A stretch of DNA of 64,000 nucleotides from Fibrobacteria bacterium (GCA_043745805.1 JAYTSD010000043.1:64001-128000); one strand, 5' to 3'. Positions 33,677 to 64,000 are shown, numbered from the stretch's first letter. A program made the numbers and translations. The notes: generated from the sequence alone by a model not told the origin.

Positions 33677-33763
33677 CATCTAGAAACCCAATCTCCTCGA
33701 AATAATTTCTCCGCAACATATCAGTAACCGTTTTGAAAATCCTTTCTAGTACAGTTTCCCCCT

Positions 33764-40399: not shown

Positions 40400-40434
40400 T
40401 TTGTATAGCTTTGCCTGAAGGGAAAAAGAGGAAT

Positions 40435-41025: not shown

Positions 41026-41091
41026 TATGCCTTTTGTCTCCCTATATTGAGCGACATTCTTATGCATACCCACAATTCCAAGATTGACTTT

Positions 41092-43200: not shown

Positions 43201-43409
43201 TCCTTCCTAGAGCATATCCAAAACAAAGCCTCATTTTTGATCCTCGCTATTGAGTGCAACATATTTCTTTCATAAAGATCGGGCACTGTGCAAGCCCTTT
43301 ATTTTTTTCTGAATTCAAAATTAAATCCAGATGAAATATTGATCCTATAAATTTCAATCAGGAATTTTTAACCCCTGATCTTTTGGATCGTATCAACTAA
43401 GGAAAAATA

Positions 43410-46115: not shown

Positions 46116-46153
46116 ACTAAAAAGCTTTCTGTATCAAGCAGGCGATAAAAGGA

Positions 46154-47257
46154 TTATTGTGTTATTAATGGTTTAATATCTTCTTCCAAAGTTTTTTGCA
46201 TTTTTTGAATAGCGATTTGGGCAGTAGCAACTTTTTCTTTATTTTTAGCAATAGCATCGCCGAAGGTGGGGATCATTTCTCCAATAGCTGTAATAGCCGC
46301 TGCAATTTCATTTTCTAAACGAGTGGCTAAAGTGGGGTTAAGTGCTTTTACGAATTCACGAATACCTTTATTGGTGGTGCCAGCAGCATATTTCCCTAAA
46401 TACACATTTTGAATACTACGAATATTATCTTGAAAATCAGCATTAGAATTATCGCTGAATTGTGATTCTTCCAAGCTTCTATCTTCTGCTGTAAAAGGAC
46501 CATTGATTTTACCATTGGCGACTTCATCACTAATGCCAATCATGCCATTCACTAATTCTTGCAAGGCGGCATTTTTACTAATATAAACACTACCTTCTAA
46601 ACCAGCCTTTTTAAAATTAGCGATGTAATTTCCATCAGTAGGTGACCACGCTTGTATAAGCTGTTGTGTGGCCGCTTGGAAACTGGCGGTTACGGCGTTG
46701 AGGTATTCAAACTCACGCACAGTAAAAGATTCTAAGGTTTTCGTGTTACCCTGACCAAAGAGTAAATATTCAATAGTGTGAAATCCTTTTTGTGTGCCTT
46801 CTAAGTTATCTACGAAACTTTGATTGAGCGTATTACCACTGGTCAACACTCCCTCCAAATCTGCTTTATTCAGAGGCCAGCTATCAATTGAAGGATCAAT
46901 GCCTTTGCTTTCCACAGGTCCAAAAATAAAAGCTTCGCTTTGTTCCCAAGGGCGACGGGCATTACGCCAGGCTTGTTTGGCTGCCGCTAAATGATCCATC
47001 GTTTTATGGTCTTTAAAATTTTTAATAGCAAAAGCCAAGCTATCGGCTTTTTGTCCCAGATCAACATAAGTGCCATAAATCACCGTGGTGGATACGGCAT
47101 CTAAAATCTCGCTAATCCCTTTCTCGCTAGAAAAAGAAATAGTCGGAGAGTCTTCATTACATCCCGCTTGCATGCCCGCCATACCTAGGGATAATAAACT
47201 TAAACCTATACAATAATGTTGGTGATGGTTTTTTATCTGACCTTTTTTAAATAACAT
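46154..47257 (-). CDS. imelysin (peptidase M75 / IrpA-like) iron-regulated lipoprotein
   Basis: WEQSEAFIFGP, IDSWP, GFHTIEYLL (HxxE), ESQFSDNS. Confidence 0.9.
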   Translation of the reverse strand: MLFKKGQIKNHHQHYCIGLSLLSLGMAGMQAGCNEDSPTISFSSEKGISEILDAVSTTVIYGTYVDLGQKADSLAFAIKNFKDHKTMDHLAAAKQAWRNARRPWEQSEAFIFGPVESKGIDPSIDSWPLNKADLEGVLTSGNTLNQSFVDNLEGTQKGFHTIEYLLFGQGNTKTLESFTVREFEYLNAVTASFQAATQQLIQAWSPTDGNYIANFKKAGLEGSVYISKNAALQELVNGMIGISDEVANGKINGPFTAEDRSLEESQFSDNSNADFQDNIRSIQNVYLGKYAAGTTNKGIREFVKALNPTLATRLENEIAAAITAIGEMIPTFGDAIAKNKEKVATAQIAIQKMQKTLEEDIKPLITQ

Positions 47258-47299
47258 ACTTTCTCCGATTTAATAAAAATTTTCTCGTCATTTCACGAT

Positions 47300-48577
47300 T
47301 TAAAACACTAAGCCTAGTCCCAAGGAATAAGTATTTTCTTGATTATTAGTGGCTAATCCTAACGTGCGATAGGAAAGTTGCCCTTTTAAAATGACTTGGG
47401 GATGGGGTTTATAATTTACCCCAGTGGTCCAGGTTTCTTTCCCCCAACGTGGATTGTTAAAATACTCTTCAGGCATTTCGCGCATGGTGTCGTATCTATC
47501 ACAACGTGCAAAAATATCCAAGCTCTGTTTGGGAAATGTATTTTGTAATTCCATTTTCGTACGTAGTAATACAAAAACATCCACACCGACTTCTGCAAAC
47601 CAACCTAAGGCAGTTTTACCTACGGGTGTACGCTTAACCGCCAAGTTACTTGAGAGATTTTTATTAGCCAAAGAAACCGAGGCAGCATTTTGTAAAATCC
47701 CATATAAAAGCAAAGCTCTTGCTTTAAAAGGCCCTTGTTTATAATCCGCATGCATATCTAATACGGTAACATACGCAGGAATTGGTAAATCGGGCTTAGG
47801 CCGATTGCCGGCACTATTGCCATAATAGCCCGCAATGCCGAAAGTACTTTGGGGAAATAAATCACAATCTAAACGTCCTGCAAGGGCTAAGTTTTCCGCA
47901 TTCACAGTTTCAAAACGCCCTTGATGTCCGCGTGATATCCATGTGGAAGAGCTGAAGCCCGTGGCGTCCAATCCATTAATCACTTGTACTTGATAGAATA
48001 AAGCGCCAAGCTCTCCGAATATTTCAATGCCGGTTTCATGCCATAGCAAAGGGATGAGTTGACTTTCCATTTCCGATCTTTGCACCGTAAAATAATCTAC
48101 AGGCTCATCTAGAGTATAAGCCCAACCTATGGGTAAAAAGAAATGTCCCAAGCGAATATTAAAATTTGGATGCAAAGAGAAAACTATACAAAGTTCTTCG
48201 AGGGTAACTTCGCCGCCTTTTTCAACTTCGCTTTCATATTCGCCAAATTCTTCTAGCTTATCGAATTCCATGGTTGCGCCAGTGCCACCATGTTCAAATT
48301 CTATTTCTGCTTCAAAGCGAATTTTATTAGTGAGTATATACGTGGGTTCAATTGCAAGTCTTTCCAAATCCATTTGCGCTCGGCGTGTAGGATCGGTTTG
48401 CCAATTAAAAGTTTGGTAGTTAATAGTTCCGTAACCATGTAAAAAGAATTGATTTTTGTTTGACGAATTAGGAGTGGGTTCAACAGCGTAAATACATAGG
48501 GTTAGAGGAAACAATAAATAATATAAAGTGAATATTAGTGTGAGATGACATTTTTCAAATAGCATTTCCTTCCTCAT
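47300..48577 (-). CDS. outer-membrane beta-barrel / porin-like protein of the imelysin-DHOR iron locus
   Basis: EIEFEHG, IPLLWHETG, alternating beta-strand pattern, C-terminal Phe. Confidence 0.8.
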   Translation of the reverse strand: MRKEMLFEKCHLTLIFTLYYLLFPLTLCIYAVEPTPNSSNKNQFFLHGYGTINYQTFNWQTDPTRRAQMDLERLAIEPTYILTNKIRFEAEIEFEHGGTGATMEFDKLEEFGEYESEVEKGGEVTLEELCIVFSLHPNFNIRLGHFFLPIGWAYTLDEPVDYFTVQRSEMESQLIPLLWHETGIEIFGELGALFYQVQVINGLDATGFSSSTWISRGHQGRFETVNAENLALAGRLDCDLFPQSTFGIAGYYGNSAGNRPKPDLPIPAYVTVLDMHADYKQGPFKARALLLYGILQNAASVSLANKNLSSNLAVKRTPVGKTALGWFAEVGVDVFVLLRTKMELQNTFPKQSLDIFARCDRYDTMREMPEEYFNNPRWGKETWTTGVNYKPHPQVILKGQLSYRTLGLATNNQENTYSLGLGLVF

Positions 48578-49152: not shown

Positions 49153-51549
49153 ATGCCGATTCAACCTTCATACCCTGGTGTTTATGTTCAGGAAGTTTCC
49201 AGTGGAGTAAGGACAATAACAGGTGTCTCCACTTCGATTGCCGCTTTTTTTGGACGAACATTAAAAGGTCCCATTAATAAAGCCGTGCGATGCCTGAGCT
49301 ATACTGATTTTTTGCGATACTTCGGCGGCGGCCATGCTCTGAGTGATACTGGGATTAGTGTTAAACAGTTCTTCGATAATGGGGGAACGGATTGTTATGT
49401 AGTTCGGTTGGCTAAAAATCCAGCAGTGGCCAGTGTAACTTTAAAAAATGAAACAGCAGTTACGAAGAATGTCCTTATTGTTACTGCCAAGGCAGAGGGA
49501 ACTTGGGGACAGCAAATAAAATTATTCACGGATTACAATACCACTAATCCAGATGATAGCTTCAACTTAACTGTTGTTCATGAAATTGATGGGGCTGTTT
49601 TAGCTCAAGAAGTTCACAGTTTTCTTTCCATGAATCCAAATTCATCACGCTTTGCACCCATTTTTGTTTCGCAATCTTCAAAATTTGTCAATCTGGCCAT
49701 TCATTCTGATTTAGGTGATCCTAATATTTCAGGGTCTATTATGAATTTAACCGCCAATACCCCCGCAGGTTATAGTCAAAGCCGCAGAGTGTTTACGGGA
49801 GTATCGGATAATGCGCTTAGGGATGCGGTCAAAACGGAGATTGAATCTAAAATTACTGCGGGTAAATCTAAGTTTGAAATCAATGTAAATGGGATTAATG
49901 CTACCGTCGATCTCAAGGGAATCGAATTAAGGCCTGACTGGACTACTCCTGTTCCTAATGATGTAACGGGTTTGTTACCTTCGCTTGCTGCGCATATCAA
50001 CCCGCAACTTCAGGCTGTGAATGCAAGTTTAGTTGTTGCGTTTAGCTGGGATACTTTGGCAACAAGAACTTTGGTATTAAGGGTAACATCCGCTGTTGCG
50101 CCATTTTCCAATGTGTCCATTCGACGAAGTAACTCCAATGATATTAGTGCTGCTTTGATGTTGGGTGTAGAGCAAGGTGGTATTGAGGTTGCACGTTACA
50201 GTAATCTTCGTCCAATCCCCAATGGATCCTATTTTTGGGGAGGCGGTACGTATGGAAATTTTACCACTGAACTCGATAAATTCGCCGTGCTGGCTCAAAA
50301 TGGAATAACGAGTATCACCCTTGGGACAAAGGTTATCCCTTTAAACCTTGTCACGGCCGGTACTTTGATTTACGAACAAGCCGCAGGCGCACTGGATGGG
50401 GTGCGAGAAAAACTACGACTCATTGTACAGGCCGTAAATGCGGATGTGAATTCCCCCTGTACCGCTGAGTTATGGGGATATCATCTCGTATTTAAGCGCA
50501 AGATGGGTAATATAAATGATACTGCTTCCATTACCACAAGTCCTGGGGCTAACTTTGGAAATGGATTTGTATCCAATGTAAAACAGTATAGCCTAGGAGC
50601 TCTGGGAACGGGTGTTTATCAATCTGCGGGTACAGCGGGTAGTGATGGTATTGCTCCAGATAAAAATACTTATGTGGGTAGCCCTGTTGATCATACCGGT
50701 TTTTATGCCTTGGATAAAGTGGACCTTTTTAACCTAATGATAATTCCTGGAGATCGTGAAGTGCTCGCCTCACTCTATGCAGAATTGATTGCGGAGGCCA
50801 GTAATTTTTGCCAGCAAAAACGCGCGTTTTTTCTGGCGGATGCTCCTGCAGATTGGACTCAAGGGGAAATCATGGCGGCGGATGCTAGCGCAGTTAACAA
50901 TATTCGCATAGGTGTGGCAAAAACAAATTCGGCAATATTTTATCCGCGAGTACAATTTAGTGATGGTGGATTGCGTAAGTATATCGGCCCTTCCGGCATG
51001 ATTGCAGGATTAATGGCCAGAACCGATTCTCAACGCGGAGTGTGGAAAGCACCTGCGGGCATTGATGCGGATTTGCGTGGTGTACTCGATGTAGAATTAA
51101 ACTTAACAGATAATGAAAATGGTGTGTTAAATAAATTAGGCGTGAACTGCCTGCGTAAATTTCCGAATGGAATTGTGAACTGGGGCGCACGTACCTTGGA
51201 TGGTTCAGATGATTTTGGTTCGGAATGGAAATATATTCCTATTCGTCGTCTCGCACTTTTCTTGGAAGAGTCACTTTTTCGCGGAACTAAATGGGTAGTA
51301 TTTGAACCCAATGATGAACCCCTTTGGGCTAAGATTAGAATGAACTTAAATGCATTTATGAATAGTCTATTTAGACAGGGTGCATTTCAGGGAAGTACGC
51401 CTGATAAGGCCTTCTTCGTAAAATGCGATGGAGAAACGACCACAGCTAATGATCGCAACTTAGGTATTGTAAATATTCAGGTTGGCTTTGCACCAGTTAA
51501 GCCGGCGGAGTTCGTCATTATTAGCATACAACAAATCCCAGATGTCTAA
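49153..51549 (+). CDS. contractile tail sheath protein (eCIS; Afp2/3/4-like)
   Basis: YPGVYVQE, FFDNGG..CYVVR, RTDSQRGVWKAPAG, WGARTL, VFEPN, GFAPVKPAEFV. Confidence 0.95.
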   Translation: MPIQPSYPGVYVQEVSSGVRTITGVSTSIAAFFGRTLKGPINKAVRCLSYTDFLRYFGGGHALSDTGISVKQFFDNGGTDCYVVRLAKNPAVASVTLKNETAVTKNVLIVTAKAEGTWGQQIKLFTDYNTTNPDDSFNLTVVHEIDGAVLAQEVHSFLSMNPNSSRFAPIFVSQSSKFVNLAIHSDLGDPNISGSIMNLTANTPAGYSQSRRVFTGVSDNALRDAVKTEIESKITAGKSKFEINVNGINATVDLKGIELRPDWTTPVPNDVTGLLPSLAAHINPQLQAVNASLVVAFSWDTLATRTLVLRVTSAVAPFSNVSIRRSNSNDISAALMLGVEQGGIEVARYSNLRPIPNGSYFWGGGTYGNFTTELDKFAVLAQNGITSITLGTKVIPLNLVTAGTLIYEQAAGALDGVREKLRLIVQAVNADVNSPCTAELWGYHLVFKRKMGNINDTASITTSPGANFGNGFVSNVKQYSLGALGTGVYQSAGTAGSDGIAPDKNTYVGSPVDHTGFYALDKVDLFNLMIIPGDREVLASLYAELIAEASNFCQQKRAFFLADAPADWTQGEIMAADASAVNNIRIGVAKTNSAIFYPRVQFSDGGLRKYIGPSGMIAGLMARTDSQRGVWKAPAGIDADLRGVLDVELNLTDNENGVLNKLGVNCLRKFPNGIVNWGARTLDGSDDFGSEWKYIPIRRLALFLEESLFRGTKWVVFEPNDEPLWAKIRMNLNAFMNSLFRQGAFQGSTPDKAFFVKCDGETTTANDRNLGIVNIQVGFAPVKPAEFVIISIQQIPDV

Positions 51550-51578
51550 GCACTATTAAAGATCATTAGGAGATAAAA

Positions 51579-52100
51579 ATGGCCAAAGGTTTTGAAAAAA
51601 ATGCAAAGCGTATTGATCCTTATAAAAATTTTAAGTTCCGTATTCTATGGGACAATAAAACTGTATTAGGAGTTAGCAAGGTCAGCGCTTTAAAACGTAC
51701 TACCGAAGTGGTTTCGCATCGCGATGGGGGTGACAATAGCACTGATCATAAATCACCTGGTCGCACTAAATATGATGGCATCACCTTGGAACGTGGATTA
51801 ACCCATGATCCAGAGTTTGAAAAATGGGCAAATAAAGTTCATCCCTACGCGGGCGACTCGGCCATGGATTTAGCCGATTATAAAAAAAACTTAACCTTAG
51901 AAATGATGAATGAAAAAGGGCAGGTGGTTTATCGCTACTTTCTTTATCATTGCTGGGTTAGCGAATACACGGCCATGCCCGAGCTCAATGCCAATGCCAA
52001 TGCTATATCTATCGAATCTTTAAAAATAGAACTTGAAGGTTGGGATAGAGATTTGGATACCAAAGAACCGAATGAAAGTGATGACGTACCGAAATCATGA
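51579..52100 (+). CDS. tail tube protein (T4 gp19-like; Afp1/5-like)
   Basis: DPYKNFKFR, PGRTKYDGITLERG, ELNANANAISIE. Confidence 0.93.
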   Translation: MAKGFEKNAKRIDPYKNFKFRILWDNKTVLGVSKVSALKRTTEVVSHRDGGDNSTDHKSPGRTKYDGITLERGLTHDPEFEKWANKVHPYAGDSAMDLADYKKNLTLEMMNEKGQVVYRYFLYHCWVSEYTAMPELNANANAISIESLKIELEGWDRDLDTKEPNESDDVPKS

Positions 52101-52116
52101 TAGGGTGGAATAGAAC

Positions 52117-52947
52117 ATGAATGTTGCTCCGGGATCAAATGCTATTGGTCAGTTATCGGAGCAGACCACGTCCTTTGCCGGATTCTATCCAGCGAGCGAA
52201 ATACGCATGCGTAATTTTGGAATACTGCAAAGCGATCTCGGTATTAATTTTACTACAAAAAATACTTCGGCACTAATTACCCATTTACTCGAACAATGTT
52301 CATTTGATCCTATAGGTATTGGGTCAACCGGTTTTTTCAAAAATCTTTCTATTGGCAGACGAGTAGAATGCTTGCTTGTTTTGGCAAAGGGAGGAGACCA
52401 CTCAGATTTCAATTTCCCATTTGCTTGCTCCGGTTGCAAACAGATTATTGCGTTGGATATTACCATGGAAGAAATCACAACGCTGCAAAGAGAAGCGGAT
52501 CACATTGAAACCGTGCAGATTCAAGTAATGGGTAACAATTTCGGTTTGCGAAAACCTTGCGGTCATGATCAAGAAAAATGGGCTGAAATGGTTTTTCTCG
52601 ATCAAAATGAAGCCCAGATAAAGATGATTAATTCGCTTACACTTACGGAGAATTTTCCTGCAAAAATCAATGCCGAGGCTTTGCAGCTTATTGATGAAGC
52701 GATGAACGTAGCGGATCCCTTGATCAACTTTAATTGCCAAGTAACTTGCGAGGAATGTACTACAAAAAATGAAATTGTAATTGACCTTTGCGATGCGGCG
52801 ATAAATATGCTGAAGCGGCTTCAGCAGCAATTGATAGTGATGGCACATAAATTGGCTTCCCATTATCATTGGAGTGAAAGTGAAATTTTTGCTATTCCGC
52901 ATTGGCGTCGGAAAGTTTATCTCGACCTTATAGCTGTTGGACGATAA
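52117..52947 (+). CDS. CIS baseplate-hub/tail-assembly protein (T4 gp26-like)
   Basis: Two CxxC motifs; C-terminal HKLASHYHWSESEIFAIPHWRR..YL; follows the tube gene. Confidence 0.75.
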   Translation: MNVAPGSNAIGQLSEQTTSFAGFYPASEIRMRNFGILQSDLGINFTTKNTSALITHLLEQCSFDPIGIGSTGFFKNLSIGRRVECLLVLAKGGDHSDFNFPFACSGCKQIIALDITMEEITTLQREADHIETVQIQVMGNNFGLRKPCGHDQEKWAEMVFLDQNEAQIKMINSLTLTENFPAKINAEALQLIDEAMNVADPLINFNCQVTCEECTTKNEIVIDLCDAAINMLKRLQQQLIVMAHKLASHYHWSESEIFAIPHWRRKVYLDLIAVGR

Positions 52948-52950
52948 ATT

Positions 52951-53934
52951 ATGCCAAACTATTTTTCACGTCTTGCTGAGCAGAGTGGTTTTCAATTTAA
53001 GGGAAGCCAAGGAGTAAGGCCCGAAGTATTAGAAAAAAAAGCGGGTAGTGGACTTTCTCCGCTTGAACAAGAAGCGACGATTTTAAGTCCATCGCAACCA
53101 TTAGAAAAATCTTCCCTAACCTTAATAGATTCGAATAAGCATGAAATGCAACCCTCCATTTCTAAAAATGAAGAAATTAAAAATGAGCCTTCAGAGAAAG
53201 CGCCTATTAATCCGAAGGAAATTTTTGCTCAAAAACAGGTAACTCGTGAAGTTAATCCAATTGTCCAAAACATAGATTCTGTGACTGCGCCAATGGAAAA
53301 TAAAACCCTTGCTGCATCGCTTTTCAATAAAGCGATATTGCCTGTGAATAAAATGAACGAAAATAGTTTATCACAGGAGTCGAAAGAGTTTAAATCACCG
53401 AGTGCTGTTAAATTAGCTGATCCTGTTGAAGCGTCAGTACCGATACAAGATTCACCTCAGTTTGAGTCAGCAGAAAAACAAGAAAGCATTGTGTCTCTCC
53501 TTTCACCTTTGGAGAATTCTGAAAAGCCAAATTATTTTTCCAGAACTTCGGAGATTTTGAATCAAGGTCAAATCGAAAAACAGGATATTCATTCTCTTAT
53601 TCTGCAAGATGTTCAGGAATGGGTTGCGGCTTCGCCCACGGATACAAAAACGGTAAAAAGTAATATTGAAGTATTCAATACGGCTTTAAATTCAGAACCT
53701 GTATTCTCAAATGAGATAACTGATCCGTTAACACAAAATTTGTTTCGATCTAGAAATGCAGAAGTAGAAAGTTCGTTGGAACATAACTTTAATCTTTCCA
53801 TTGGATCCATTAGTATTATTATTGATGAACCCACAAAACCACAGCATTCAGAATTTAAAAGCCAGCCACAACCTCAACCTACAATACCGAAAAACGAAAA
53901 TCGTTTTTCGCGACTTAGTCGAAGTTATCTCTAA
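52951..53934 (+). CDS. CIS-associated low-complexity hypothetical protein
   Basis: MPNYFSRLA start, S/E/P/K-rich middle, C-terminal LSIGSISIIID strand. Confidence 0.7.
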   Translation: MPNYFSRLAEQSGFQFKGSQGVRPEVLEKKAGSGLSPLEQEATILSPSQPLEKSSLTLIDSNKHEMQPSISKNEEIKNEPSEKAPINPKEIFAQKQVTREVNPIVQNIDSVTAPMENKTLAASLFNKAILPVNKMNENSLSQESKEFKSPSAVKLADPVEASVPIQDSPQFESAEKQESIVSLLSPLENSEKPNYFSRTSEILNQGQIEKQDIHSLILQDVQEWVAASPTDTKTVKSNIEVFNTALNSEPVFSNEITDPLTQNLFRSRNAEVESSLEHNFNLSIGSISIIIDEPTKPQHSEFKSQPQPQPTIPKNENRFSRLSRSYL

Positions 53935-53948
53935 ATTATTCAGGATTT

Positions 53949-55172
53949 ATGGCACTTGCTGATACATCAAAAGCTATTGGAGCCGTTACTAAAGGGCTTA
54001 AAGAACGTCTTGAATTTAGAACGGGTTATCATGTAAGTGCAGGTCGCATTGAAAAGCCCAATTTGACTATAGACGAGGCCTACTTAAATCTTTTTTTATA
54101 TGAAATCGCTTTTGATCCGCAATTAAAAAATACACCATTAAATGAAGGTGAAAAGCCACCTATATGGTTGGTGTTGAAATTTTTGCTAACCGCCTTTGCC
54201 TCGAAAACAGAAAGCGATACTCAAGCTGCCCATGAAATATTAGGTTTGGCGATTCGAGCTATTTATCAAGATGATTTGCTAAAACTAAATGGATTGGGAG
54301 ATGTCAAACCTTTAGAAAGTAATCCGAGTGAATTGCATGTTACCTTTGAGGAATCACCAGCTGATCTGGTCGCGAAGTTAACCCAGGGTTCTGATGAAAC
54401 GCCAAGACTTTCCATTGCCTTTCAAGTGCGTCCGGTGATGATTGCCTCAGCAGAACCCGGCCATTATTCTTTGCTTGTGGGTGTGGATTATACTAAACCG
54501 CCAATTACCCTTTCACCAGCGCCCGTTGGGCTGGATGTAATTCCTTCCATGGGATCCTTTATAACCGAGATAGTACCCTCAGGATTTGAAGTGAATGAAG
54601 AGATTACTCTGCGTGGTACGGATCTGCATTTGGCGAATCTCTCGGTGATGCTTGGATCAGTTGAACTCCCTATAACCATGCAGCAACCTGATGAATTAAA
54701 GTTTAAAATCGATAGTGCGATTATTGCAGCGAGTGGACTTTCCGCTGGAAGTTATTCGGTTATGATTGTGCAAACTCTTCCGGGTACGGGTAAAAAACGC
54801 AAGAGCAATGCGCTAATAGGAAATTTAGTACCCACACTTTTGAATGCTCCGATAGCGGCATTTAGCCTTATGGTTATTCCCGCAATTCCTCCCAGTAGTT
54901 TCGACACCGCTTATGCCACTATTAATCTGAATGGTATATTGCTAGGAAATAAAAATGATGATGTGATACTTGCTCTTTATCGTGATGGTAAAGTGTATCA
55001 ATCTTTTGACGTATTTTCTGTGTTACCCGTCCCACAACCTCCCTTACAACCTGCACAGCAATTGAAGATGATTGCTAAGGACGCGGTGCCCGTGGGTGAC
55101 TATCAGGCCATTTTACTAGTTAATGGGCAACAAGCTCCTCAAAGTCCAATTATTTCCCTGCATAATCCATGA
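53949..55172 (+). CDS. DUF4255 (Afp16/Pvc16-like cap) protein with C-terminal IPT/Ig-like extension
   Basis: AIGAVT..L, LNLFLYEI, LKFLLTAF, RLSIAFQVRPVMI. Confidence 0.85.
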   Translation: MALADTSKAIGAVTKGLKERLEFRTGYHVSAGRIEKPNLTIDEAYLNLFLYEIAFDPQLKNTPLNEGEKPPIWLVLKFLLTAFASKTESDTQAAHEILGLAIRAIYQDDLLKLNGLGDVKPLESNPSELHVTFEESPADLVAKLTQGSDETPRLSIAFQVRPVMIASAEPGHYSLLVGVDYTKPPITLSPAPVGLDVIPSMGSFITEIVPSGFEVNEEITLRGTDLHLANLSVMLGSVELPITMQQPDELKFKIDSAIIAASGLSAGSYSVMIVQTLPGTGKKRKSNALIGNLVPTLLNAPIAAFSLMVIPAIPPSSFDTAYATINLNGILLGNKNDDVILALYRDGKVYQSFDVFSVLPVPQPPLQPAQQLKMIAKDAVPVGDYQAILLVNGQQAPQSPIISLHNP

Positions 55173-57328
55173 GTACTTTAACCGGAAAATATGAGAATAT
55201 TGTATTCTCGACCAATTTACGAGCCGATGATGAATGGGCAAATTATTGGATGCGTCAGGCTACACTTAGGTTACGTCGTGAAATCGCATGGATTTGGAAT
55301 GAAAGAGGGCATACGGGGAAAGCGCGTATGGGCGAGTTGCCTCCTATTATTGACCAAGTTTCGAATTCCTTGGACTTTGCGCGTTACCGTGATGAAAAGC
55401 AAAGATTCTTTAAAGAAAATGCGGCAGCGAGATATTTGACTGAGCAATTGCAAATCGAAAAACCCGAAGATAACAAAGTTCATCGTGGCTCATTTGGCTG
55501 GGTTATTATGGAATTGGGCTTGGATGATATTTCGGCATTTGCGCTGGGCCTTGCGCTTGCGGCCGCTTTCGATGCGAGCTTTGGAGCGGTGATTGCAGCT
55601 TGTCTAAATGAACATGCACGTATTTATCCTAATCTAATGCTCATACAAAGGCTATGGGATTTGCCCGAGGATGCACTTTTGCTTTCCGATCCGATGCATT
55701 TACTATTCCGCTTTGGTCTTTTACGTCGCAGTGCCGTGGCTCAACGCGCTTATGCCGAGACCTTATGGGAGCAACCCTTATTTATTCCTTCCATGATCGC
55801 GCGTCAACTTTTATGCGAATACCCCATTGTTCCCGCAGGGTTGGAATTGCTTCATCCTGAAAAATTGCCAGCGGGAAAATTAGATAAATCCTGTGAGCTA
55901 ATAGCCTATCGACTCAAATCGGAAAAAGCCAAAAATTTACGCGTGTTACCTCTATTGGGAAATAAACGATCTGCTTATCGCCAAATCGCAGTGGACATTT
56001 CCAAGGTTACTAAACGCGCTTTGTGGGAATATCGCGGTAACCCTTCTCTACTGGCCGATGCGGATTATTTGAATATGCTGGTGACTTTATGTTGGTTACA
56101 AGATAGAGAATTACTTATCTCTCATGAGATATTTGATAGCAGTGAAAAAAACCGAGAGCGTAATGAAGGTTTACCCCTTGTCTCCATTCCTATTACTTTA
56201 TTTTTGGCAATTTCGGATCGTAGACAAATTAAACATATCGATTCGGAATGGATATTACCCCTAATTAAAACTCCCGTTCTGTCTTATGAAGAGAGGCTTA
56301 TTTTTTGGCATGCCGAATTTGGGGCGGAGGCAGAAAAACATGGATCTATTTTTACCGAGATTGCGCGAAGATTTCGTTATGACAAAGAAACTATTCGACA
56401 AATTATTAAAGAGTTAAAAGCGCTTCCCCATAAACTCACTGAGGATGATTTTAATATGGCTTGCCGTGTTGAGCTCAATTTTGATATTGGCGAATTAGCA
56501 GCTTATGTGGAGCCTCGCTTTGTGGATGAGCAACTCATTTTACCTAAAAAACAAGAGCAGCAATTTGAAGAACAATTAGCAGCCATGGAATCGCTTACAA
56601 AAGTGCATTATAGTTGGGGAACGGCACGTGCTTGGAATGAAGGCGGAATAACCGTTTTGTTTGCGGGGCCGCCGGGAACGGGAAAAACTATGGCCGCCGA
56701 AATTATGGCTTTGCGTTTGAAGTTACCCATGTATCGCATTGATTTATCGCAGGTGGTTAATAAATACATCGGTGAAACGGAAAAAAATTTAAAACGCATT
56801 TTTGATGCGGCTGAAATTTCCGATATGGTACTTTTCTTTGATGAAGCGGATTCGCTTTTTGGCAAGCGTACGGATGTGAATGATGCACGTGATCGCTATG
56901 CGAATTTGGAAGTGAGTTATTTGCTGGAACGCATGGAACGATTCAAAGGCTTAGCCATTTTGGCGACCAATCGCAAGCGCGATTTGGATGATGCCTTTAT
57001 GCGACGCATACGCTATATCATTGACTTTCCTGTGCCGGAAGAAGCGCAGCGTTTAGCGATTTGGAATCAGGTTATTCCTCAGGACGTGGCCAAAAATTCT
57101 TTATTGGACATTCCTTTTTTGGCAAGGCAATTTCCGCTTTCTGGTGGACATATTCGTTCCGTGGTATTCAATGCTTGTTTACAATCGGCACATGGGAATA
57201 GTGAAAAAAAGGAACTCTTTATGAAAGATGTTTTGATTGCCATTAAACGTGAATATGACAAAATGAATCGCTCTTTGAGTCTCGATCAACTGGGACGGTA
57301 TGCTCAGCATATTAGTGGGTTAGAGTAA
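55169..57328 (+). CDS. AAA+ ATPase (Afp15/Pvc15-like)
   Basis: GPPGTGKT, VVNKYIGETEKNL, FFDEAD.LFGKR, DRYAN.EV.YLL.RME. Confidence 0.94.
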   Translation: MSTLTGKYENIVFSTNLRADDEWANYWMRQATLRLRREIAWIWNERGHTGKARMGELPPIIDQVSNSLDFARYRDEKQRFFKENAAARYLTEQLQIEKPEDNKVHRGSFGWVIMELGLDDISAFALGLALAAAFDASFGAVIAACLNEHARIYPNLMLIQRLWDLPEDALLLSDPMHLLFRFGLLRRSAVAQRAYAETLWEQPLFIPSMIARQLLCEYPIVPAGLELLHPEKLPAGKLDKSCELIAYRLKSEKAKNLRVLPLLGNKRSAYRQIAVDISKVTKRALWEYRGNPSLLADADYLNMLVTLCWLQDRELLISHEIFDSSEKNRERNEGLPLVSIPITLFLAISDRRQIKHIDSEWILPLIKTPVLSYEERLIFWHAEFGAEAEKHGSIFTEIARRFRYDKETIRQIIKELKALPHKLTEDDFNMACRVELNFDIGELAAYVEPRFVDEQLILPKKQEQQFEEQLAAMESLTKVHYSWGTARAWNEGGITVLFAGPPGTGKTMAAEIMALRLKLPMYRIDLSQVVNKYIGETEKNLKRIFDAAEISDMVLFFDEADSLFGKRTDVNDARDRYANLEVSYLLERMERFKGLAILATNRKRDLDDAFMRRIRYIIDFPVPEEAQRLAIWNQVIPQDVAKNSLLDIPFLARQFPLSGGHIRSVVFNACLQSAHGNSEKKELFMKDVLIAIKREYDKMNRSLSLDQLGRYAQHISGLE

Positions 57329-57332
57329 TAAT

Positions 57333-57593
57333 ATGGCTAATCGAAATATTCACATTGAAAATATACAAGTTAGCATGCCACCTCATTTGGTAGTGCAGGC
57401 GCATGAAATAGGGAATGGACTTGGTCAGGCTATTCTGCATGCCATTGCTGAATCTACGCTTGGAAAACATGGCCATAAAAAAATAGCCGCCTTAGAGGTC
57501 GGAAAAGTGAGTGTGAAAAACTATGCCGAACCGCGAGGAATACAACAACAAATTGCGAGTCATGTGGCGAATACGATTCGGGAAAAATTCTAA
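57333..57593 (+). CDS. small CIS-associated hypothetical protein
   Basis: IHIENIQV N-terminus; tightly packed in the operon. Confidence 0.7.
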   Translation: MANRNIHIENIQVSMPPHLVVQAHEIGNGLGQAILHAIAESTLGKHGHKKIAALEVGKVSVKNYAEPRGIQQQIASHVANTIREKF

Positions 57594-57610
57594 AAGTTAG
57601 GGTAGCGAAG

Positions 57611-58273
57611 ATGGCTGGTTTTTTAATGAGAGGCGCATTGATCGAATACGGTTCCGATTTTATGGGACCCATTCCTAATGTAGTGATCTTTCAATTCAAT
57701 CCTGAGACCTTGTCACGTACCGTACAAATTCCTCCGCGTCCGGCTTCTGCGACGGCACGCGAAACGACACAAGCGGGTCAACCTTCTATAGAAAAAATCA
57801 CCTTGAAGGCTAGCTTTAGTGCGGCAGATGAGCTGGGCGATAATAAAGCCTTAGCGCGATTGTTTGGTGTCGGGACTCGTTTAGCCGCATTGGAGAAAAT
57901 GGTTTATCCGTCCAATGAATTGACTGCTGCAATCGGTGCTGCGCTAGGCTTAGGAGGCAGCTCAACCGGTGGTGATCTTAGGCAGCCTATTCCGCGTCAA
58001 AAAATGCCAAGGATATTATTTATTTGGGGGCCATTAAAAGTATTACCGGTGGTACTCGAATCCATGAGCATTACCGAACAACAATATGATTTTTTATTGA
58101 ATCCCACGCAAGCTGAGGTTTCCATTACCATGGCCGTTAACTCTAATGATCAATGTTCGGATGATAATATAGGTAAAGGCGCTTTATCTTATTCTAATAT
58201 GGCAAAGGATGCCCAAGCCATGGCAAACCTTTCTAATACGGCTGCACAAATTGTGGACTTAATTCCATTTTGA
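57611..58273 (+). CDS. CIS tube initiator (Afp7/Pvc7-like)
   Basis: FQFNPETLSRT, LFIWG, VLESMSITE, P.QAEVSITM. Confidence 0.85.
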   Translation: MAGFLMRGALIEYGSDFMGPIPNVVIFQFNPETLSRTVQIPPRPASATARETTQAGQPSIEKITLKASFSAADELGDNKALARLFGVGTRLAALEKMVYPSNELTAAIGAALGLGGSSTGGDLRQPIPRQKMPRILFIWGPLKVLPVVLESMSITEQQYDFLLNPTQAEVSITMAVNSNDQCSDDNIGKGALSYSNMAKDAQAMANLSNTAAQIVDLIPF

Positions 58274-58286
58274 ATAAGGAGGTAAC

Positions 58287-58589
58287 ATGTTTGATGTAAA
58301 TTCTCGTTATGCCAAAAATCCAATCGTTGAGGTGGATAAGTCCAATAGCAAAAAGGTAAATGTTATCAAGTTACGCCACTTGCCTTATGTGGGAGGGAAT
58401 TTATCTGAGGTAAAAGGCATAGATAGACTCGATATTATGGCTCATCGTAATTATAAAGACGGCACAAAGTTTTGGCATGTGGCCGATGCGAATACCGAGC
58501 TTGAGGCTAATGATCTGGTAACTAATAAGTTACCTGAAAATCCACTGCAAAAGCAAGAAACCACTTTCATTTTCATTCCTGAGAACTAA
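58287..58589 (+). CDS. LysM-like baseplate component
   Basis: SRY, DRLDIMAH..Y....FWHVADAN. Confidence 0.8.
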   Translation: MFDVNSRYAKNPIVEVDKSNSKKVNVIKLRHLPYVGGNLSEVKGIDRLDIMAHRNYKDGTKFWHVADANTELEANDLVTNKLPENPLQKQETTFIFIPEN

Positions 58590-58590
58590 A

Positions 58591-59748
58591 ATGAACAAAG
58601 CATTTCGAGTTTATTATGGGGGGAATTTGGCTACGCAAGAACAACTCAATGCTATTGAGGAAATTGTTGTGGTACAAGAAATGGGTATTGCTTGGGAAGC
58701 GCAGATAAAAATACCCGTTTGTATTGCTGAAGATGGTTCTTGGGAAGGTGAAAATGATTCCATCTTTGCAGAGTTTGCACGTGTTCGCATTGAGGCTCAA
58801 ATTGGTGAAAATGATTTTATCCCTCTAATCGAAGGGAGTATTCACTCAGGGGAGCCAGATTATAATGCATCGCCAGGCTTAAGTACCGTAACCGTTATTG
58901 TACATGATGACACTCGCTTACTACATCGCCAAGCCGAATCCGTTGCTTTTTCTGGACAAAGCGATAATGAAATTGTGAGTACTATATTTAATGATGCCTC
59001 GCTTGGTGAGAATGCTGAAATAGATAATCCTCCTGCTGGACCGGTACAAAATGCGGTCATAAACCAACAGGGCACAATGATGGAAATGTTACGTTCCATT
59101 GCGGCGCGTTATCAAAACTATTATGCCTATGTGCTTCCAGGATCCACAGTTGGAAATAGTAAAGGTGTTTTTAAAAAACTTCCGACAAGCCCAGATGCAG
59201 GTTTGCCTATTGCCTATTTGAGTGGCCCTAAGCAAAACATTTCGGAATTTCGCATTCGAAGAAATTCTGCTAGGGCCTCTCGTGTTGAAGGAGCTCATTT
59301 AAGTATGAGCGATAAAAGCGTTGCTAAAGCTAGCGCAAATCCGAGCGACAATATTCCTTCAGGAAGTGATAGTGCGACTAGTGGAAGGGATACCGATCTT
59401 CGTCTTCGTCGCCTTCCGTCGGGTATTGGCGATCATACTGATTTAACTGAAGCGGCCAATGGAATGGCTGAAGAATCTAGTTTCACACTTAGTGCTGAAG
59501 GCAGTGTAATTTCAGGACTTTTTCCAGCGATATTGCAACCGTATAAAATGCTTTCCGTGCAACTTTCCAATAGTCGTTACAGTTCCAATTATGTAATTAG
59601 CAAGGTGACACATACATTAGGCATTTCGGAATATACCCAAAGTTTTTCGGTAATAGGTAATGTGGTGTCGCCTGAGGGTAGCGCTACTATACCTGCGCCA
59701 GCAGCAGTGATGTCTGTCAGTTTTAATGTTCAAATGGGTGTATTCTAA
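58591..59748 (+). CDS. phage late control D / gp27-like spike hub (N-terminal half of VgrG/Afp8)
   Basis: Position before gpV; QQGTMMEMLRSIAARY, YVISKVTHTL. Confidence 0.75.
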   Translation: MNKAFRVYYGGNLATQEQLNAIEEIVVVQEMGIAWEAQIKIPVCIAEDGSWEGENDSIFAEFARVRIEAQIGENDFIPLIEGSIHSGEPDYNASPGLSTVTVIVHDDTRLLHRQAESVAFSGQSDNEIVSTIFNDASLGENAEIDNPPAGPVQNAVINQQGTMMEMLRSIAARYQNYYAYVLPGSTVGNSKGVFKKLPTSPDAGLPIAYLSGPKQNISEFRIRRNSARASRVEGAHLSMSDKSVAKASANPSDNIPSGSDSATSGRDTDLRLRRLPSGIGDHTDLTEAANGMAEESSFTLSAEGSVISGLFPAILQPYKMLSVQLSNSRYSSNYVISKVTHTLGISEYTQSFSVIGNVVSPEGSATIPAPAAVMSVSFNVQMGVF

Positions 59749-60392
59749 TGCATAATTCTGAAGTAGAAGATCAATTAATAGGAATTTCGGAATGGAGAAA
59801 TCAACATTTCTTTGGGAAATACCGTGGTACCGTAGACGCCGTAGAAACGGGCAATGATCTCGGACTCATTTCTGTTAAAGTCCCAGATGTTTTTGGTGCC
59901 GATTTTATAGTGAAAAGAGTGCGGCCTTGTTCCCCTTTTGGAGGCAATAAACATGGCTTTGTCGCTATTCCAGAAGCGGGCGATGGAGTGTGGGTTGAAT
60001 TTGAAGCGGGAAAAACTTCCCTACCTATTTGGACAGGATTTTGGTGGGCGGATAATGAGATACCCGAACCTAAAGGTCCTTTGATACGCAGCTTTATTAC
60101 TACCAAGGGACATAAACTGCTTTTAAATGATGATGCCAATGAAGTGCAATTGCTCCATGCCAGTGGACCTGAAATCACCATGACGGATAGCGATATTACT
60201 ATTCAAATAGGGGATACCAGTATTAAATTGACTACTAGTGATTTAATCTTAAAAGTGGGCGCTTCATCTACTTCACCGCAAATCAAAATTACCGCCAGTG
60301 ACATTACCTTGCAAAGTAGTACAGTAGGTTCTATTAAGCTTACGTCAGGTGGCGTGGATATTGGTAATGGCGCTATGAAAGTAGGAGCCTAA
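59748..60392 (+). CDS. baseplate assembly protein V / gp5-like spike
   Basis: FFGKYRG.V, PEAGDGVWVEFEAG....PIWTG OB-fold; beta-helix-like repeats. Confidence 0.9.
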   Translation: MHNSEVEDQLIGISEWRNQHFFGKYRGTVDAVETGNDLGLISVKVPDVFGADFIVKRVRPCSPFGGNKHGFVAIPEAGDGVWVEFEAGKTSLPIWTGFWWADNEIPEPKGPLIRSFITTKGHKLLLNDDANEVQLLHASGPEITMTDSDITIQIGDTSIKLTTSDLILKVGASSTSPQIKITASDITLQSSTVGSIKLTSGGVDIGNGAMKVGA

Positions 60393-60728
60393 GTGCCCGG
60401 CTATATTTTAACCACGGCTAGTCAAGTAATGTGTACGCATGGAGGCAATGCGATATTAACGACTTCGAATACACAACTGCAAGTGGATAATGCACTGGCA
60501 TTATTAGAAACCGATGTGAATTCCATTGCCGGATGCCCTTTTACTTTACCCGGCCCAAAGCCATCGCCTTGTATTCGTATTGAATGGACCGCAGGTGCAA
60601 CCCAGTGTAAGAGCAATGGGACAAAGGTTTTAATTCAATCCAGTATGGGAAAATGTATTAGTGCCGAAGGGGCAACACAGGGTATAGCCATAGTGATTCA
60701 AACGCAAATGAAGGTGCAGGGGAATTGA
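60393..60728 (+). CDS. PAAR-like (DUF4280-type) spike tip
   Basis: CTHGG, IAGCPF, PSPC..I.W, conserved Cys pattern; follows the spike gene. Confidence 0.8.
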   Translation: MPGYILTTASQVMCTHGGNAILTTSNTQLQVDNALALLETDVNSIAGCPFTLPGPKPSPCIRIEWTAGATQCKSNGTKVLIQSSMGKCISAEGATQGIAIVIQTQMKVQGN

Positions 60729-60732
60729 TTTT

Positions 60733-61113
60733 ATGAAACTGCAAAATGGTAAACATTTAAAGTTTCCCTTCCATGTAGGCAATGACGGTCGCATGAGCAC
60801 CGTTAAAACCTTGGATGAACATGTACATGATGAGCTTATCCAACTGATTCTCACTAATCAGGGAGAGCGTCCTTTTCTAGTAGACTTTGGCGCGGGTGTG
60901 CGTCGTTTGGTTTTTGAAGCGGCTGATGGAATGACGGGTGCCGTAGCGAAAGCAACGATTACTCAAGCTATTAATCGCTGGCTAGGTCATCGTGCGGTTT
61001 TGGAATTTCTAAATGTGATTGTTGAAAATTCTACCATATCCGTTGATATACGCTATCATTTGGCCGGTACAGCTGATTCGCGCTCACTTCGTTTTCAACA
61101 TGCGGGAGCTTGA
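60733..61113 (+). CDS. GPW/gp25 baseplate protein (Afp9-like)
   Basis: FPF, LILTNQGER...DFGAG. Confidence 0.92.
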   Translation: MKLQNGKHLKFPFHVGNDGRMSTVKTLDEHVHDELIQLILTNQGERPFLVDFGAGVRRLVFEAADGMTGAVAKATITQAINRWLGHRAVLEFLNVIVENSTISVDIRYHLAGTADSRSLRFQHAGA

Positions 61114-61121
61114 TTTAGCAA

Positions 61122-63758
61122 ATGTTTAACGAATCCGTAATACCTTTAAGAGAAATGGCTTTGAGTGAGCCTTTGGCGGCACGTGCGCGATTGATGATCG
61201 AGGCCAGCTCATCGAATGCTCCGAATGGTATTAAGCTCATTCGCGTAATATCGGTGAATACGGTAAAGGATGAAGCATGGATAGAACTGCATTTTTTTAA
61301 TCTTAATTATTTATCCGCTATCGTTACAAAATATACAAATGATAAATCCTCGGCCCAAAAAATATTTCCTATTTCGGGTGGTTCAAGAATTCGTGCTGGA
61401 GGAGCTTTAGGGCAGGTTCAGGTGGATAGTTCACTACTTGTGGCATCCCCTTCGATTGCAATGCCTACTGCGACAAAACCCATATTGAAACTTCGCATTC
61501 ATCCTATTGGAGACTATTCAACGTATACCTTAGGGATTAGCGCGCTTCCGATTTCCGGATGGATATTCGATCCCTTATTTTCTGAGATTCGATTAAAGTT
61601 TCGTCCAGGTTGTTTCAATACCAATTGCGCACCCGAATGGGATATGGCCTTACCTCCTTTACCTGAGCCAACCATTGATTATTTAGCCAAGGATTATGGG
61701 TCTTTTCGTCAAACCATGATAACCGCCATGATGGAGCGCGTTCCGGAATGGCAACCCACAAGTGAAGCGGATCTCGATATGGTGCTCGCGGAACTTTTTA
61801 GTGTAGCTGCGGATGAACTTAGTGATTATCAAGATCGAGTGATGAATGAAGCCTATATTGCTTCTGCACGTAAACGTGTTTCCATTGCACGGCATGCACG
61901 CTTAATGGATTATCATATTCATCAAGGCAATCAAGCTTCTACATGGTTGGCCCTCGAAATTGAACATGATGGTATGGGACAAAAAATCTTTCAGCTTGTA
62001 CAAGGGCTCAAGGTATGGGCAGGCGAAAGTAATAGTGAGTCGGATAAAGAAGTAATTGATAGTTCCGTGGTTTTTATGTCGCGCCATGAAACCCAAACGG
62101 TACATCAGTATTTAAATAATATGGGGCTTTATACTTGGAGTGATACCATTACTTCGCTTAAGGCAGGATGCACTCGCGCAGATATAAAACTTTATGATAA
62201 ACTTTATTTGCATAGTCCTGATGCACCCATTGAAATCATCACCAAAGCTGCCGCCAAAGAAATACAAGATTTAATACGTCATGGAAATATTAAGCACTTT
62301 GTCATTGAGGAACATTTAAATCCCGAGACGGGATTGTTGGCCGGACGCGATCCTTCAAAAAGACAATTACTAAAACTGATTTCTGGAGAGGATACAAATC
62401 AATCCGCTTTGGCCATGGAAGATCCTATTACCGGTGAATGGTTTGTGCGCATACATTGGGAAAAAGCGGATGCCTTACATCGCGATTATTGTTTTAAAGT
62501 CCACTGTCCTTCGGGAAATTCCGGCACAGGTATCGGTGCAGTTAATAATATTTCTCTCTTTCATGGAAATTTGATTGAAATATTTCACGGCCGAGAAAAG
62601 ACTGTTCTTTTCAAGGATGAAAATGTTTTATTAGGCAATGATCCCAATAAATCTTATGAGTTTCATTATGAGCGAACACGCTGGGGAGCGCTTTGCCATA
62701 TACCGGATACTTTTTTGGCCTATCGTAATACAGATCCTGGCGGTGACGTAGCACCACTGTCAACAATTAACTTAACGGTTGAATTTCTCTCGGGGCCATC
62801 CGATCCATGGAATGAGGTTCCAAGCCTTATTCATAGTGACAATTCGGGTGAAGGTGGCGACCATTTTGTGGTAGAAACCGATGAAAATCATAAAAGCCTT
62901 ATTCGTTTTGGTAATAATAAAAATGGCATGGAATTGCCCGATGAGGCGACGGTTACCGTGACCTATCAATATGGCGATCCTCGTGAAGGCAATATTGGCG
63001 CGGATCGAATTATGTACTTCGATATTTCGACTGTGAAGATTGATCCTGCGACTCCAACATTTCTTTTGCATAGTTGTTGGAATCCATTCGATGTGGTTAA
63101 TGGACGTGATCGAGAGCCTTTAGCGGAAATTATTCGTCGCGTGCCCGAGGCTTATCGCCAAAGACAACTGCGCGCAGTGACGCTAAACGATTATATTGCT
63201 CGGGCCGAAGAAATTGAAGGCGTTTCTCGCGCAGTGGCAAAATATGCGTGGACAGGAAGCTGGCGTACCGTGCAAGTTACCATCGATCCAATAGGAACGA
63301 ATGAACTTTCGGAACCCCTGAGAAAGCAAATAGAGTCATATTTAAACGCGGTGCGTTTAATTGGTGAAGATCTCGAAGTGCGTCCGCCGAAATTTGTTCC
63401 CTTAGAAATTCAAGTCCATCTTTGCGCCAAGCCCGACGTTTGGATAGAAGATATTCGTTTTGTTTTGGAGCAAGAGTTTTCAGTAGGCTGGACGCCGGAT
63501 GGCCGCATGGGATTTTTTCATCCTGATTTATGGACATTTGGCCAATCTCTTCATGCCAGTCAAATTATGGGCCGCGCTTTTACTGTTCAGGGAGTAGAAC
63601 ATATTATTAGTGTTTCTATTAAACGTTGGAATTCCCCCTTTCCTCCTGTCGAATCGCTAACTCAGGTGGATTTCAATGAGATTATTCAAGTACAAAATGA
63701 TTCCGATCATATGGAATTAGGTACGATTACCTTTGCTATCAAAGGAGGTCGTCAATGA
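61122..63758 (+). CDS. baseplate J-like protein (Afp11-like)
   Basis: IDYLAKDYGSFRQ, LSDYQDRV.NEAY, RLMDY, RFGN, RAVTLNDY. Confidence 0.9.
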   Translation: MFNESVIPLREMALSEPLAARARLMIEASSSNAPNGIKLIRVISVNTVKDEAWIELHFFNLNYLSAIVTKYTNDKSSAQKIFPISGGSRIRAGGALGQVQVDSSLLVASPSIAMPTATKPILKLRIHPIGDYSTYTLGISALPISGWIFDPLFSEIRLKFRPGCFNTNCAPEWDMALPPLPEPTIDYLAKDYGSFRQTMITAMMERVPEWQPTSEADLDMVLAELFSVAADELSDYQDRVMNEAYIASARKRVSIARHARLMDYHIHQGNQASTWLALEIEHDGMGQKIFQLVQGLKVWAGESNSESDKEVIDSSVVFMSRHETQTVHQYLNNMGLYTWSDTITSLKAGCTRADIKLYDKLYLHSPDAPIEIITKAAAKEIQDLIRHGNIKHFVIEEHLNPETGLLAGRDPSKRQLLKLISGEDTNQSALAMEDPITGEWFVRIHWEKADALHRDYCFKVHCPSGNSGTGIGAVNNISLFHGNLIEIFHGREKTVLFKDENVLLGNDPNKSYEFHYERTRWGALCHIPDTFLAYRNTDPGGDVAPLSTINLTVEFLSGPSDPWNEVPSLIHSDNSGEGGDHFVVETDENHKSLIRFGNNKNGMELPDEATVTVTYQYGDPREGNIGADRIMYFDISTVKIDPATPTFLLHSCWNPFDVVNGRDREPLAEIIRRVPEAYRQRQLRAVTLNDYIARAEEIEGVSRAVAKYAWTGSWRTVQVTIDPIGTNELSEPLRKQIESYLNAVRLIGEDLEVRPPKFVPLEIQVHLCAKPDVWIEDIRFVLEQEFSVGWTPDGRMGFFHPDLWTFGQSLHASQIMGRAFTVQGVEHIISVSIKRWNSPFPPVESLTQVDFNEIIQVQNDSDHMELGTITFAIKGGRQ

Positions 63759-64000
63759 GCGAAGACTCTTGTGAAAATGGTTGCGTATTACCACTGTACT
63801 TTCCTCGCCGTCCAGGTGAGAATCCACCGACTCTGCATGCTAAGGATTGTCCCTGTTGCAGCCCCGAAAATCAAATCGGATCCGACATTAGCTCGGACAA
63901 TAGACCTGCATTATCGCATTTCAACTATCGAATTGGTTCTTATGGAACCATACGTGAATGGTTATTTCATCAAATAAATCAAACTCCTAATCTCAAGAAT
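63755..64000 (+). CDS. second baseplate J-like protein (Afp12-like), partial, runs off the window edge
   Basis: ATGA overlap with the previous stop, GGAGG SD; my translation MSEDSCENGC...CPCC...NRPALSHFNYRIGSYGTIRE resembles the CIS baseplate N-terminus; absent from the ORF track because there is no stop. Confidence 0.8.
   Translation, partial: MSEDSCENGCVLPLYFPRRPGENPPTLHAKDCPCCSPENQIGSDISSDNRPALSHFNYRIGSYGTIREWLFHQINQTPNLKN

Follow-up and report, generated by a model that had tools for sequence, protein, structure and literature searches.

The second baseplate J protein (J2) of an extracellular contractile injection system (eCIS) in a bacterium of the class Fibrobacteria carries a long alanine-rich insert, predicted to form a helical hairpin arm, and the outer half of this arm behaves as an exchanged cassette. 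The system is encoded by an unbroken cluster of 21 co-oriented genes (33.6 kb) that begins at position 49153 of the 64,000-nucleotide stretch analysed here (the window; contig C43:64001-128000, from a genome of 3.95 Mb that is 99% complete) and runs past its right edge. Positions beyond that edge refer to segment L001 (G000:C43:127001-147000), in which position 1001 is the first base right of the window. The main interest lies in the baseplate arm outside the window and not in the operon described by an initial annotation of the window. The arm is an undescribed structural variant in a known family, and the operon is otherwise ordinary; no description of the arm was found in the literature searched, which did not extend to the dbeCIS tables, to journals behind subscription or to the supplements of bioRxiv preprints.

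A predicted helical arm with an exchanged outer half

In the AlphaFold2 model of the arm, a first helix (residues 443-521) is followed by a kink at a conserved KD..TD motif, a second helix (527-571), the tip and a long returning helix (595-720). The predicted fold is a kinked antiparallel coiled coil, which at 0.15 nm per residue would measure about 19 nm and would consist of a conserved stalk of ~12 nm and a variable forearm of ~7 nm. The J2 host region, folded from arm-less homologues, was modelled with a predicted local distance difference test (pLDDT) score of 89; we read it as three β-barrels, one nested in another, with the arm predicted to spring from the outermost. Fold searches with the host region over nested ranges returned weak matches to small β-barrels only, and for a cage domain like those of the spike-cage proteins Alg11 and Cis11 they gave no confident match (best Z 6.9, root-mean-square deviation (rmsd) 2.3, 75 residues). 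In each of the two deepest runs a single contig without gaps spans the insert, although these runs may themselves be the source of the assembly.

Structural searches with the arm matched the antiparallel coiled coils of PrgA, colicin E9, PDB 7NNA and SMC (Z 11-14). The likeness to the hairpins of colicin E9 (5EW5) and of 7NNA, which we take to be klebicin C, is one of shape and not of demonstrated homology (colicin E9: Z 12.7, rmsd 1.9, 135 residues; 7NNA: Z 13.8, rmsd 1.5, 150 residues). The coiled-coil hairpins of colicin E9 and klebicin C engage outer-membrane receptors.

Most relatives manage without the arm. Among the best 120 of 292 J2 homologues, 99 are shorter than 1000 residues and lack residues 441-720, 14 (query included) have an alanine-rich insert of 284-308 residues at the arm site, and one has a Pro/Thr-rich insert. 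A second hairpin class was found in six (P0033, P0057, P0068, P0076, P0079 and P0080), where an alanine-rich insert of 417-441 residues with a hydrophobic Gly/Pro tip begins near residue 234 (residues ~234-670), a different J2 site from that of the arm. As in the arm, the elbow is conserved and the tip varies, again with discordant identities. Homology between the two classes was considered and not demonstrated (hhalign score 27.8, against at most 25.2 in 30 block shuffles and 29.3 in a reversed self-control). Of 57 genome loci, 53 were measured, of which 3 have the arm and 50 lack it, and gene order is alike in carrier and arm-less loci. Within the phylum the carriers (3 of 296 genomes) all belong to one family. 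Metagenomes supplied one more carrier, and the cultured betaproteobacterium Pseudaquabacterium terrae S2 (locus L022) also carries the arm.

A search for the arm in other protein families, with a profile run over 1.84 billion representatives, gave 44 matches, including one full-length carrier and two J2 fragments; two of the other 41, all partial, were inspected, and both were unrelated long proteins. An alignment search of longer proteins recovered only five carriers, all already known. A phage origin was also rejected: nine loci in a viral collection matched at 26-33% identity, and the one annotated is another eCIS cluster.

Carriers stand at five places on the core tree, and their monophyly was rejected by the approximately unbiased (AU) test (p about 1e-14, on a 47-sequence subset with replicates below the advised number and an approximate constrained tree). 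Among carriers, correlation with the core is high for the stalk (Spearman 0.81) and low for the distal arms (0.30), and the AU test kept the core tree for the stalk and rejected it for the distal arms (p 2.5e-34; 81 columns, 14 sequences). The same break is visible in DNA. Between the same-family genome G006 and genome G279, blastn left unaligned a block of ~370-410 bp that covers residues 521-644, whereas the DNA flanking it is identical at 97.7% on one side and 97.1% on the other; the outer arm halves of these two relatives share 31% of their residues. Core, stalk and distal identities are 98, 93 and 31% for the pair P0002-P0014 and 85, 74 and 35% for P0005-P0006, and the distal arm of P0001 is 52% like that of P0006 and 20% like that of its own sister, P0003.

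Certain features survive this exchange. The cassette is 113-135 residues long, and the hydrophobic tip is kept in 15 of 15 carriers (one duplicate dropped). Large hydrophobic residues make up 36% of the tip and 13-18% of the arms, which are 34-45% alanine. Proline occurs in the tips of 14 of the 15 carriers, as does Asp or Glu (14/15), and the tip of this J2 is marginally hydrophobic (Kyte-Doolittle 1.77).

Possible modes of action

We give about an even chance to a mode of action in which this lineage-II particle is released, uses the J2 arm beside its fibre to engage the target envelope and would then inject DUF4157 cargo. Fibre and toxin tips under target-driven selection typically show such swaps of an exposed end among genes that are otherwise nearly identical, and for this reason a target-engaging arm is favoured. 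By comparison with related systems, the AAA+ ATPase would load cargo into the tube through the cargo's disordered N-terminus, particles would be released after lysis of the producer, and the DUF6519 fibre would make first contact. The exchange pattern suggests that the tip would act as a specificity determinant, binding or dipping into the target outer membrane in a colicin-like manner. AlgoCIS offers an analogy for disordered N-termini as loading signals (PMC8894135; preprint 10.64898/2026.05.27.728243), and the wedge of the Streptomyces coelicolor system (CISSc) contains two gp6-like and one gp7-like subunit (PMC12237407). This 2:1 wedge suggests that J1, J2 and Tail_P2_I together would form each of six wedges, and hence that each baseplate may bear six arms.

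A fuller version of this reading is tentative, and we hold it to be well short of even: that in a subset of lineage-II systems a coiled-coil arm with an elbow, resembling that of colicins, arose twice within the baseplate wedge, that six such arms insert their hydrophobic tips in the target envelope, and that forearm and tip form a recombining cassette which sets target range. If true, contractile machines would possess a second, fibre-independent specificity module.

Several observations weigh against a released, target-engaging particle. The arm tip was modelled with low confidence (pLDDT 37-43), and the coiled-coil matches are at a level generic for any long helices. The tip in this genome has a 33-residue uncharged run that would fit a membrane anchor, and a look through the cluster revealed no lysis gene. 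Recombination is evidence of exchange, not of what selects for exchange. Moreover, the characterised relatives are not released killers: the Halogeometricum IIa system is anchored (PMC11566945), the Streptomyces contractile injection system (CIS) is cytoplasmic and fires inside the cell (PMC12237407, PMC12998442), and in tCIS a wedge extension is used as a tether (PMC8894136).

The leading rival, which we consider unlikely, is that the arm is an anchor in the inner membrane of the producing cell, from which the particle fires outward in the manner of a type VI secretion system (T6SS), as in haloarchaeal IIa systems, T6SS-iv and tCIS. The hydrophobic tip, with its long uncharged run, would suit an anchor, and the sheath has ties to both the Streptomyces and the Halogeometricum CIS. 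The latter is a IIa system with two cis11 genes and six feet that are not fully accounted for by known parts (PMC11566945), and in tCIS an extension of Cis12 together with a helix of Cis13 provides the tether (PMC8894136). Yet self-anchoring offers no clear reason for the swapping of ends between relatives that are 98% identical, and it sits poorly with the acidic residues in nearly all tips, with the 99 homologues that have no long arm at all in loci of the same gene order, and with the separate T6SS already present in the genome.

It is improbable that the particle stays in the cytoplasm and, like the Streptomyces CIS, brings about the death of its own cell under stress, with the arm in place of the CisA adaptor and the nucleases striking the producer. 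The sheath and the wedge do both find their best match in the Streptomyces CIS, a model has CisA joining CISSc to the membrane via Cis11 (PMC12237407), and the nuclease cargo has no adjacent immunity genes. However, the 1239-residue fibre with its β-helix and the shuffled, variable cargo point outward, CISSc has no fibre, and the exchange of tips would be left unexplained.

That the arm is a structural extra (for particle arrays or surface sticking) or a near-neutral passenger is about as improbable. Low-complexity, alanine-rich arms bounded by conserved flanking motifs could favour crossover, and most homologues do without an arm; the narrow range of cassette length, the retention of a hydrophobic tip in every carrier and the occurrence of a second hairpin class at a different site count against this reading. 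A prophage tail remnant or part of a classical T6SS is hardly credible and largely refuted: against the tail-like genes here and the T6SS genes elsewhere in the genome stand Pvc16_N, the Afp15-like ATPase, DUF6519 and DUF4157, host genes on both sides, an architecture alike across many phyla, and the placing of the T6SS, with its own sheath, on contig C22.

The arm matters for the question of how a membrane is met by lineage-II systems, which form the larger CIS group and have been studied less; characterised CIS include anchored, cytoplasmic and released forms, and the mode cannot be predicted from gene content. With arms present or absent between like clusters and their ends naturally exchanged, the loci amount to a natural experiment on mode of action and choice of target, and the cultured carrier makes experimental work feasible.

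The gene cluster, its cargo and its host

The 15 plus-strand open reading frames (ORFs) reported by the initial annotation from 49153 onwards are all present and tightly coupled, with no internal stops and gaps of -4 to 29 bp (Table 1). Its labels for the sheath, T4 gp19 tube, Pvc16_N (DUF4255), AAA, gpV (Phage_base_V), GPW_gp25 and Baseplate_J proteins are borne out by Pfam matches above cut-off. The CIS_tube, DUF4280 and gp26-like matches are below cut-off or weak; the labels of the tube initiator and the PAAR-like, gp26-like, LysM and hub (gpD) proteins are weak ones suggested by position. J2 itself matches TIGR02243 below cut-off (E 7.5e-36) and, by Foldseek, the wedges of CIS and phages.

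Table 1. Genes and arm features of the eCIS cluster (window positions with two dots; others in L001).
Feature	Position	Strand	Evidence or remark
Sheath, 798 aa	49153..51549	+	PF04984+PF17482; best PDB matches 8bky, 9ezm
Tube (Afp1/5, gp19)	51579..52100	+	PF06841 E 1e-40
gp26-like assembly protein (weak label)	52117..52947	+	phrog_150 E 4e-4; position conserved
Low-complexity lineage-II gene	52951..53934	+	no Pfam match; positional homologues at 24-36%
Cap/terminator Pvc16_N (DUF4255)	53949..55172	+	PF14065 E 1e-16
Afp15-like AAA+ ATPase	55169..57328	+	PF00004 E 5e-28; Walker A and B readable
Small conserved ORF, 86 aa	57333..57593	+	homologues at equivalent position
Tube initiator (CIS_tube, Afp7-like; weak label)	57611..58273	+	PF19266 E 0.008, below cut-off
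LysM-like ORF (weak label)	58287..58589	+	LysM profile reaches only tCIS All3321, E 0.38
Hub half of split spike (gp27/gpD-like; weak label)	58591..59748	+	position; Phage_GPD in 2/14 homologues, E>=0.011
Spike half (gp5/gpV)	59748..60392	+	PF04717 E 1.5e-14
PAAR-like tip (weak label)	60393..60728	+	DUF4280 E 0.006
gp25 (Afp9)	60733..61113	+	PF04965 E 5e-10
Baseplate J 1 (Afp11a; J1), 878 aa	61122..63758	+	PF04865; TIGR02243 E 7e-45
Baseplate J 2 (Afp11b; J2), 1200 aa	63755..64000 (first 82 codons); whole, L001:755-4357	+	
Predicted helical hairpin arm in J2, aa 438-721, 284 aa, Ala-rich	L001:2066-2917	+	~1-2 kb right of window edge
Exchanged distal cassette of arm, aa ~529-644	L001:2339-2686	+	hydrophobic tip aa ~570-600
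Tail_P2_I wedge/fibre adaptor, 882 aa	L001:4362-7010	+	PF09684 E 0.001, slightly below cut-off
DUF6519 (eBAP5) fibre, 1239 aa	L001:7023-10742	+	PF20129 E 2e-9; weak beta-helix; tail spike phrog_7458
Post-fibre ORF, 154 aa	L001:10773-11237	+	alignment: shortened form of 229-353 aa family
DUF4157 cargo 1, 1090 aa, C-terminal AHH nuclease	L001:11283-14555	+	PF13699 E<=5e-29; PF14412 E 5e-13
DUF4157 cargo 2, 722 aa	L001:14673-16841	+	PF13699 E<=5e-29
DUF4157 cargo 3, ~970 aa, hydrophobic segment and conserved tip	L001:16867-19770	+	PF13699 E<=5e-29

The sheath is ~800 residues long in all five relatives tested, arm present or absent, and thus a long sheath showed no association with the arm in that set. 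Its middle part of ~310 residues (window 49723-50652) has no Pfam family, is kept in the same five relatives and may be an outer sheath domain. The genome holds no second copy of the structural genes, and a promoter scan gave 6 sites, against 3.4 +/- 1.6 by chance.

As the initial annotation had anticipated, fibre and effector genes lie past the right edge. The three DUF4157 cargo genes account for all DUF4157 matches in the genome. No Pfam family matches the tips of cargo 2 and 3, and no PDB entry that of cargo 2; from motifs judged by eye we presume both to be PD-(D/E)XK-like. The cargo 2 tip finds a 69% identical counterpart in a G006 cargo that is otherwise a different one. Eight other proteins, seven of them with DUF4157, share the cargo 3 tip, and the G006 array has a changed order and different contents. 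Gaps of 117 and 25 bp between the cargo genes leave no room for immunity genes, and eCIS cargo without adjacent immunity genes is common (PMC8213781). A C-x-CGGGC-x-x-C motif, possibly a metal-binding part of the loading signal, precedes DUF4157 in all three N-termini (L001:11283-19770) and in G006 cargo. In runs X3 and X4, variants are concentrated in the N-terminal region of cargo 3 (L001:17199-17517); this region is ~70% identical to cargo 2, and the variants may reflect exchange with the cargo 2 gene or mis-laid contigs. The post-fibre ORF (L001:10773-11237) retains only the N-terminal helical part of its family and is missing the next domain.

Host genes close the cluster on either side; beyond its end at L001:19770 is a convergent sugar ATP-binding cassette transporter (read by eye). 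Just upstream, on the minus strand (window 44733-48577), are genes for an imelysin, a di-haem oxidoreductase and a porin-like protein, a block that looks like an iron-uptake cluster and was not seen next to the G006 locus. Further left, a region with a TonB-dependent receptor, an Ig-repeat protein and neighbours (window 32001-44000) has a GC fraction of 0.48-0.52, against 0.37-0.46 elsewhere, and is possibly a separate acquisition; at 1650-4262 are a Fic-domain gene and a protein with a weak match to a C-terminal sorting domain of the type IX secretion system type.

The host belongs to the class Fibrobacteria, in agreement with the annotated Fibrobacterota origin; the locus listed under that class is in G006, a genome from the same family. 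The further suggestion of a lineage without a characterised CIS holds insofar as no paper characterising a Fibrobacterota eCIS was found in the literature searched. Novelty by host lineage was ruled out, since eight Fibrobacter eCIS operons were catalogued in 2021 (PMC8213781 supplement, files 13-15 outside the search) and the cap family Pvc16_N is matched in 45 of 296 genomes of the phylum. One of the eight, from UWH6, is of another type, with two tubes and afp14. The supplements of PMC12210884 (three files) and PMC12923769 (four of five files) contain no Fibrobacter or Pseudaquabacterium rows; the latter include one Aquincola eBAP5 row. Flanking genes differ between this genome and G006, and the same gene order recurs in annotated loci from Acidobacteriota, Nitrospirota, Verrucomicrobia and others (37 of 57 loci annotated, several cut short), which suggests that the cluster moves sideways. 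Relatives of the same order or family hold other CIS types (G027:C7, L017; G012:C1, L019-L020), one with three sheath genes and one with a shorter sheath and ATPase, a sign of repeated independent gains.

Relation to known contractile injection systems

The cluster is a member of the eCIS family: sheath, tube, gp25, baseplate J, spike, Afp16 cap and Afp15 AAA+ are all found. Gene content supports the single-sheath, single-tube, split-spike system first described, and fits dbeCIS lineage II, IIa-like. In particular, two afp11 genes, a split afp8 and afp10 are present and afp14 is absent, as in IIa of PMC6899500 (the hub and PAAR labels being weak). The Tail_P2_I and DUF6519 genes occupy the afp12/afp13 position, whose divergent genes separate IIa from IIc (PMC6899500); the assignment is by gene content and is provisional as between IIa and IIc. 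The Afp/PVC/MAC type originally proposed (lineage I, with fused afp8, single afp11 and afp14) was rejected in view of the split spike, the two J genes and the sheath, which is closest to those of the Streptomyces (E 2e-73) and Halogeometricum (E 3e-71) CIS. The use of DUF4255 and the Afp15-like ATPase as proof of an extracellular mode was likewise overstated, because the characterised IIa system is membrane-anchored (PMC11566945).

The exclusion of a prophage tail and of a T6SS membrane complex was upheld. Terminase, portal and capsid had no match (four Pfam families over the whole genome, other head families not being searched), and TssC and TssL families match only on contig C22, where a separate classical T6SS with its own sheath lies at G000:C22:5636-19096 (TssC and TssL by Pfam, the rest by eye). 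The co-occurrence of eCIS and T6SS in one genome has been called rare (PMC6899500). None of the 21 cluster genes encodes a multi-pass membrane protein, and no leftover cluster gene reads, by eye, as a tape measure.

The dbeCIS IIa systems (PMC6899500) share the core of Afp1/5, 2-4, 7 (a weak label here), 8, 9, 11, 15 and 16 together with extra subtype-specific genes; the available text mentions no helical arm of the kind found here. The CIS of Halogeometricum borinquense (an archaeal T6SS; PMC11566945; PDB 9EZM) shares the clade IIa gene set, two cis11 genes and DUF4157 cargo, but it is an archaeal system, as opposed to one in a diderm bacterial host, and is held at the membrane with a putative membrane protein of six helices; it also has toxin-immunity pairs. 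No counterpart of that protein or of those pairs was seen here. The eBAP5/Tail_P2_I baseplate type (PMC12923769) likewise has a Tail_P2_I adaptor followed by a DUF6519 fibre; there target recognition is assigned to fibres, and the word 'coiled' is absent from that paper's text. The cytoplasmic CIS of S. coelicolor (PMC12237407; PDB 9GTP, 8BKY) is the best match in sheath and in wedge fold, and differs in having one afp11 and a fused spike (IId by PMC6899500), no fibre and a separate CisA membrane protein.

Wedge proteins with extra domains are also found in tCIS of Anabaena (PMC8894136), AlgoCIS (PMC8894135) and SalCIS (10.1101/2025.06.01.657177), where they build cages, attach the particle to its target or touch a membrane. 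The cage of Alg11 has been called an evolutionary hotspot, and the SalCis11 extension consists of seven helices. These three systems belong to lineage I, and their extensions are β-rich cages or hydrophilic helices, in contrast to the predicted two-helix hairpin of ~19 nm with an exchanged hydrophobic tip described here.

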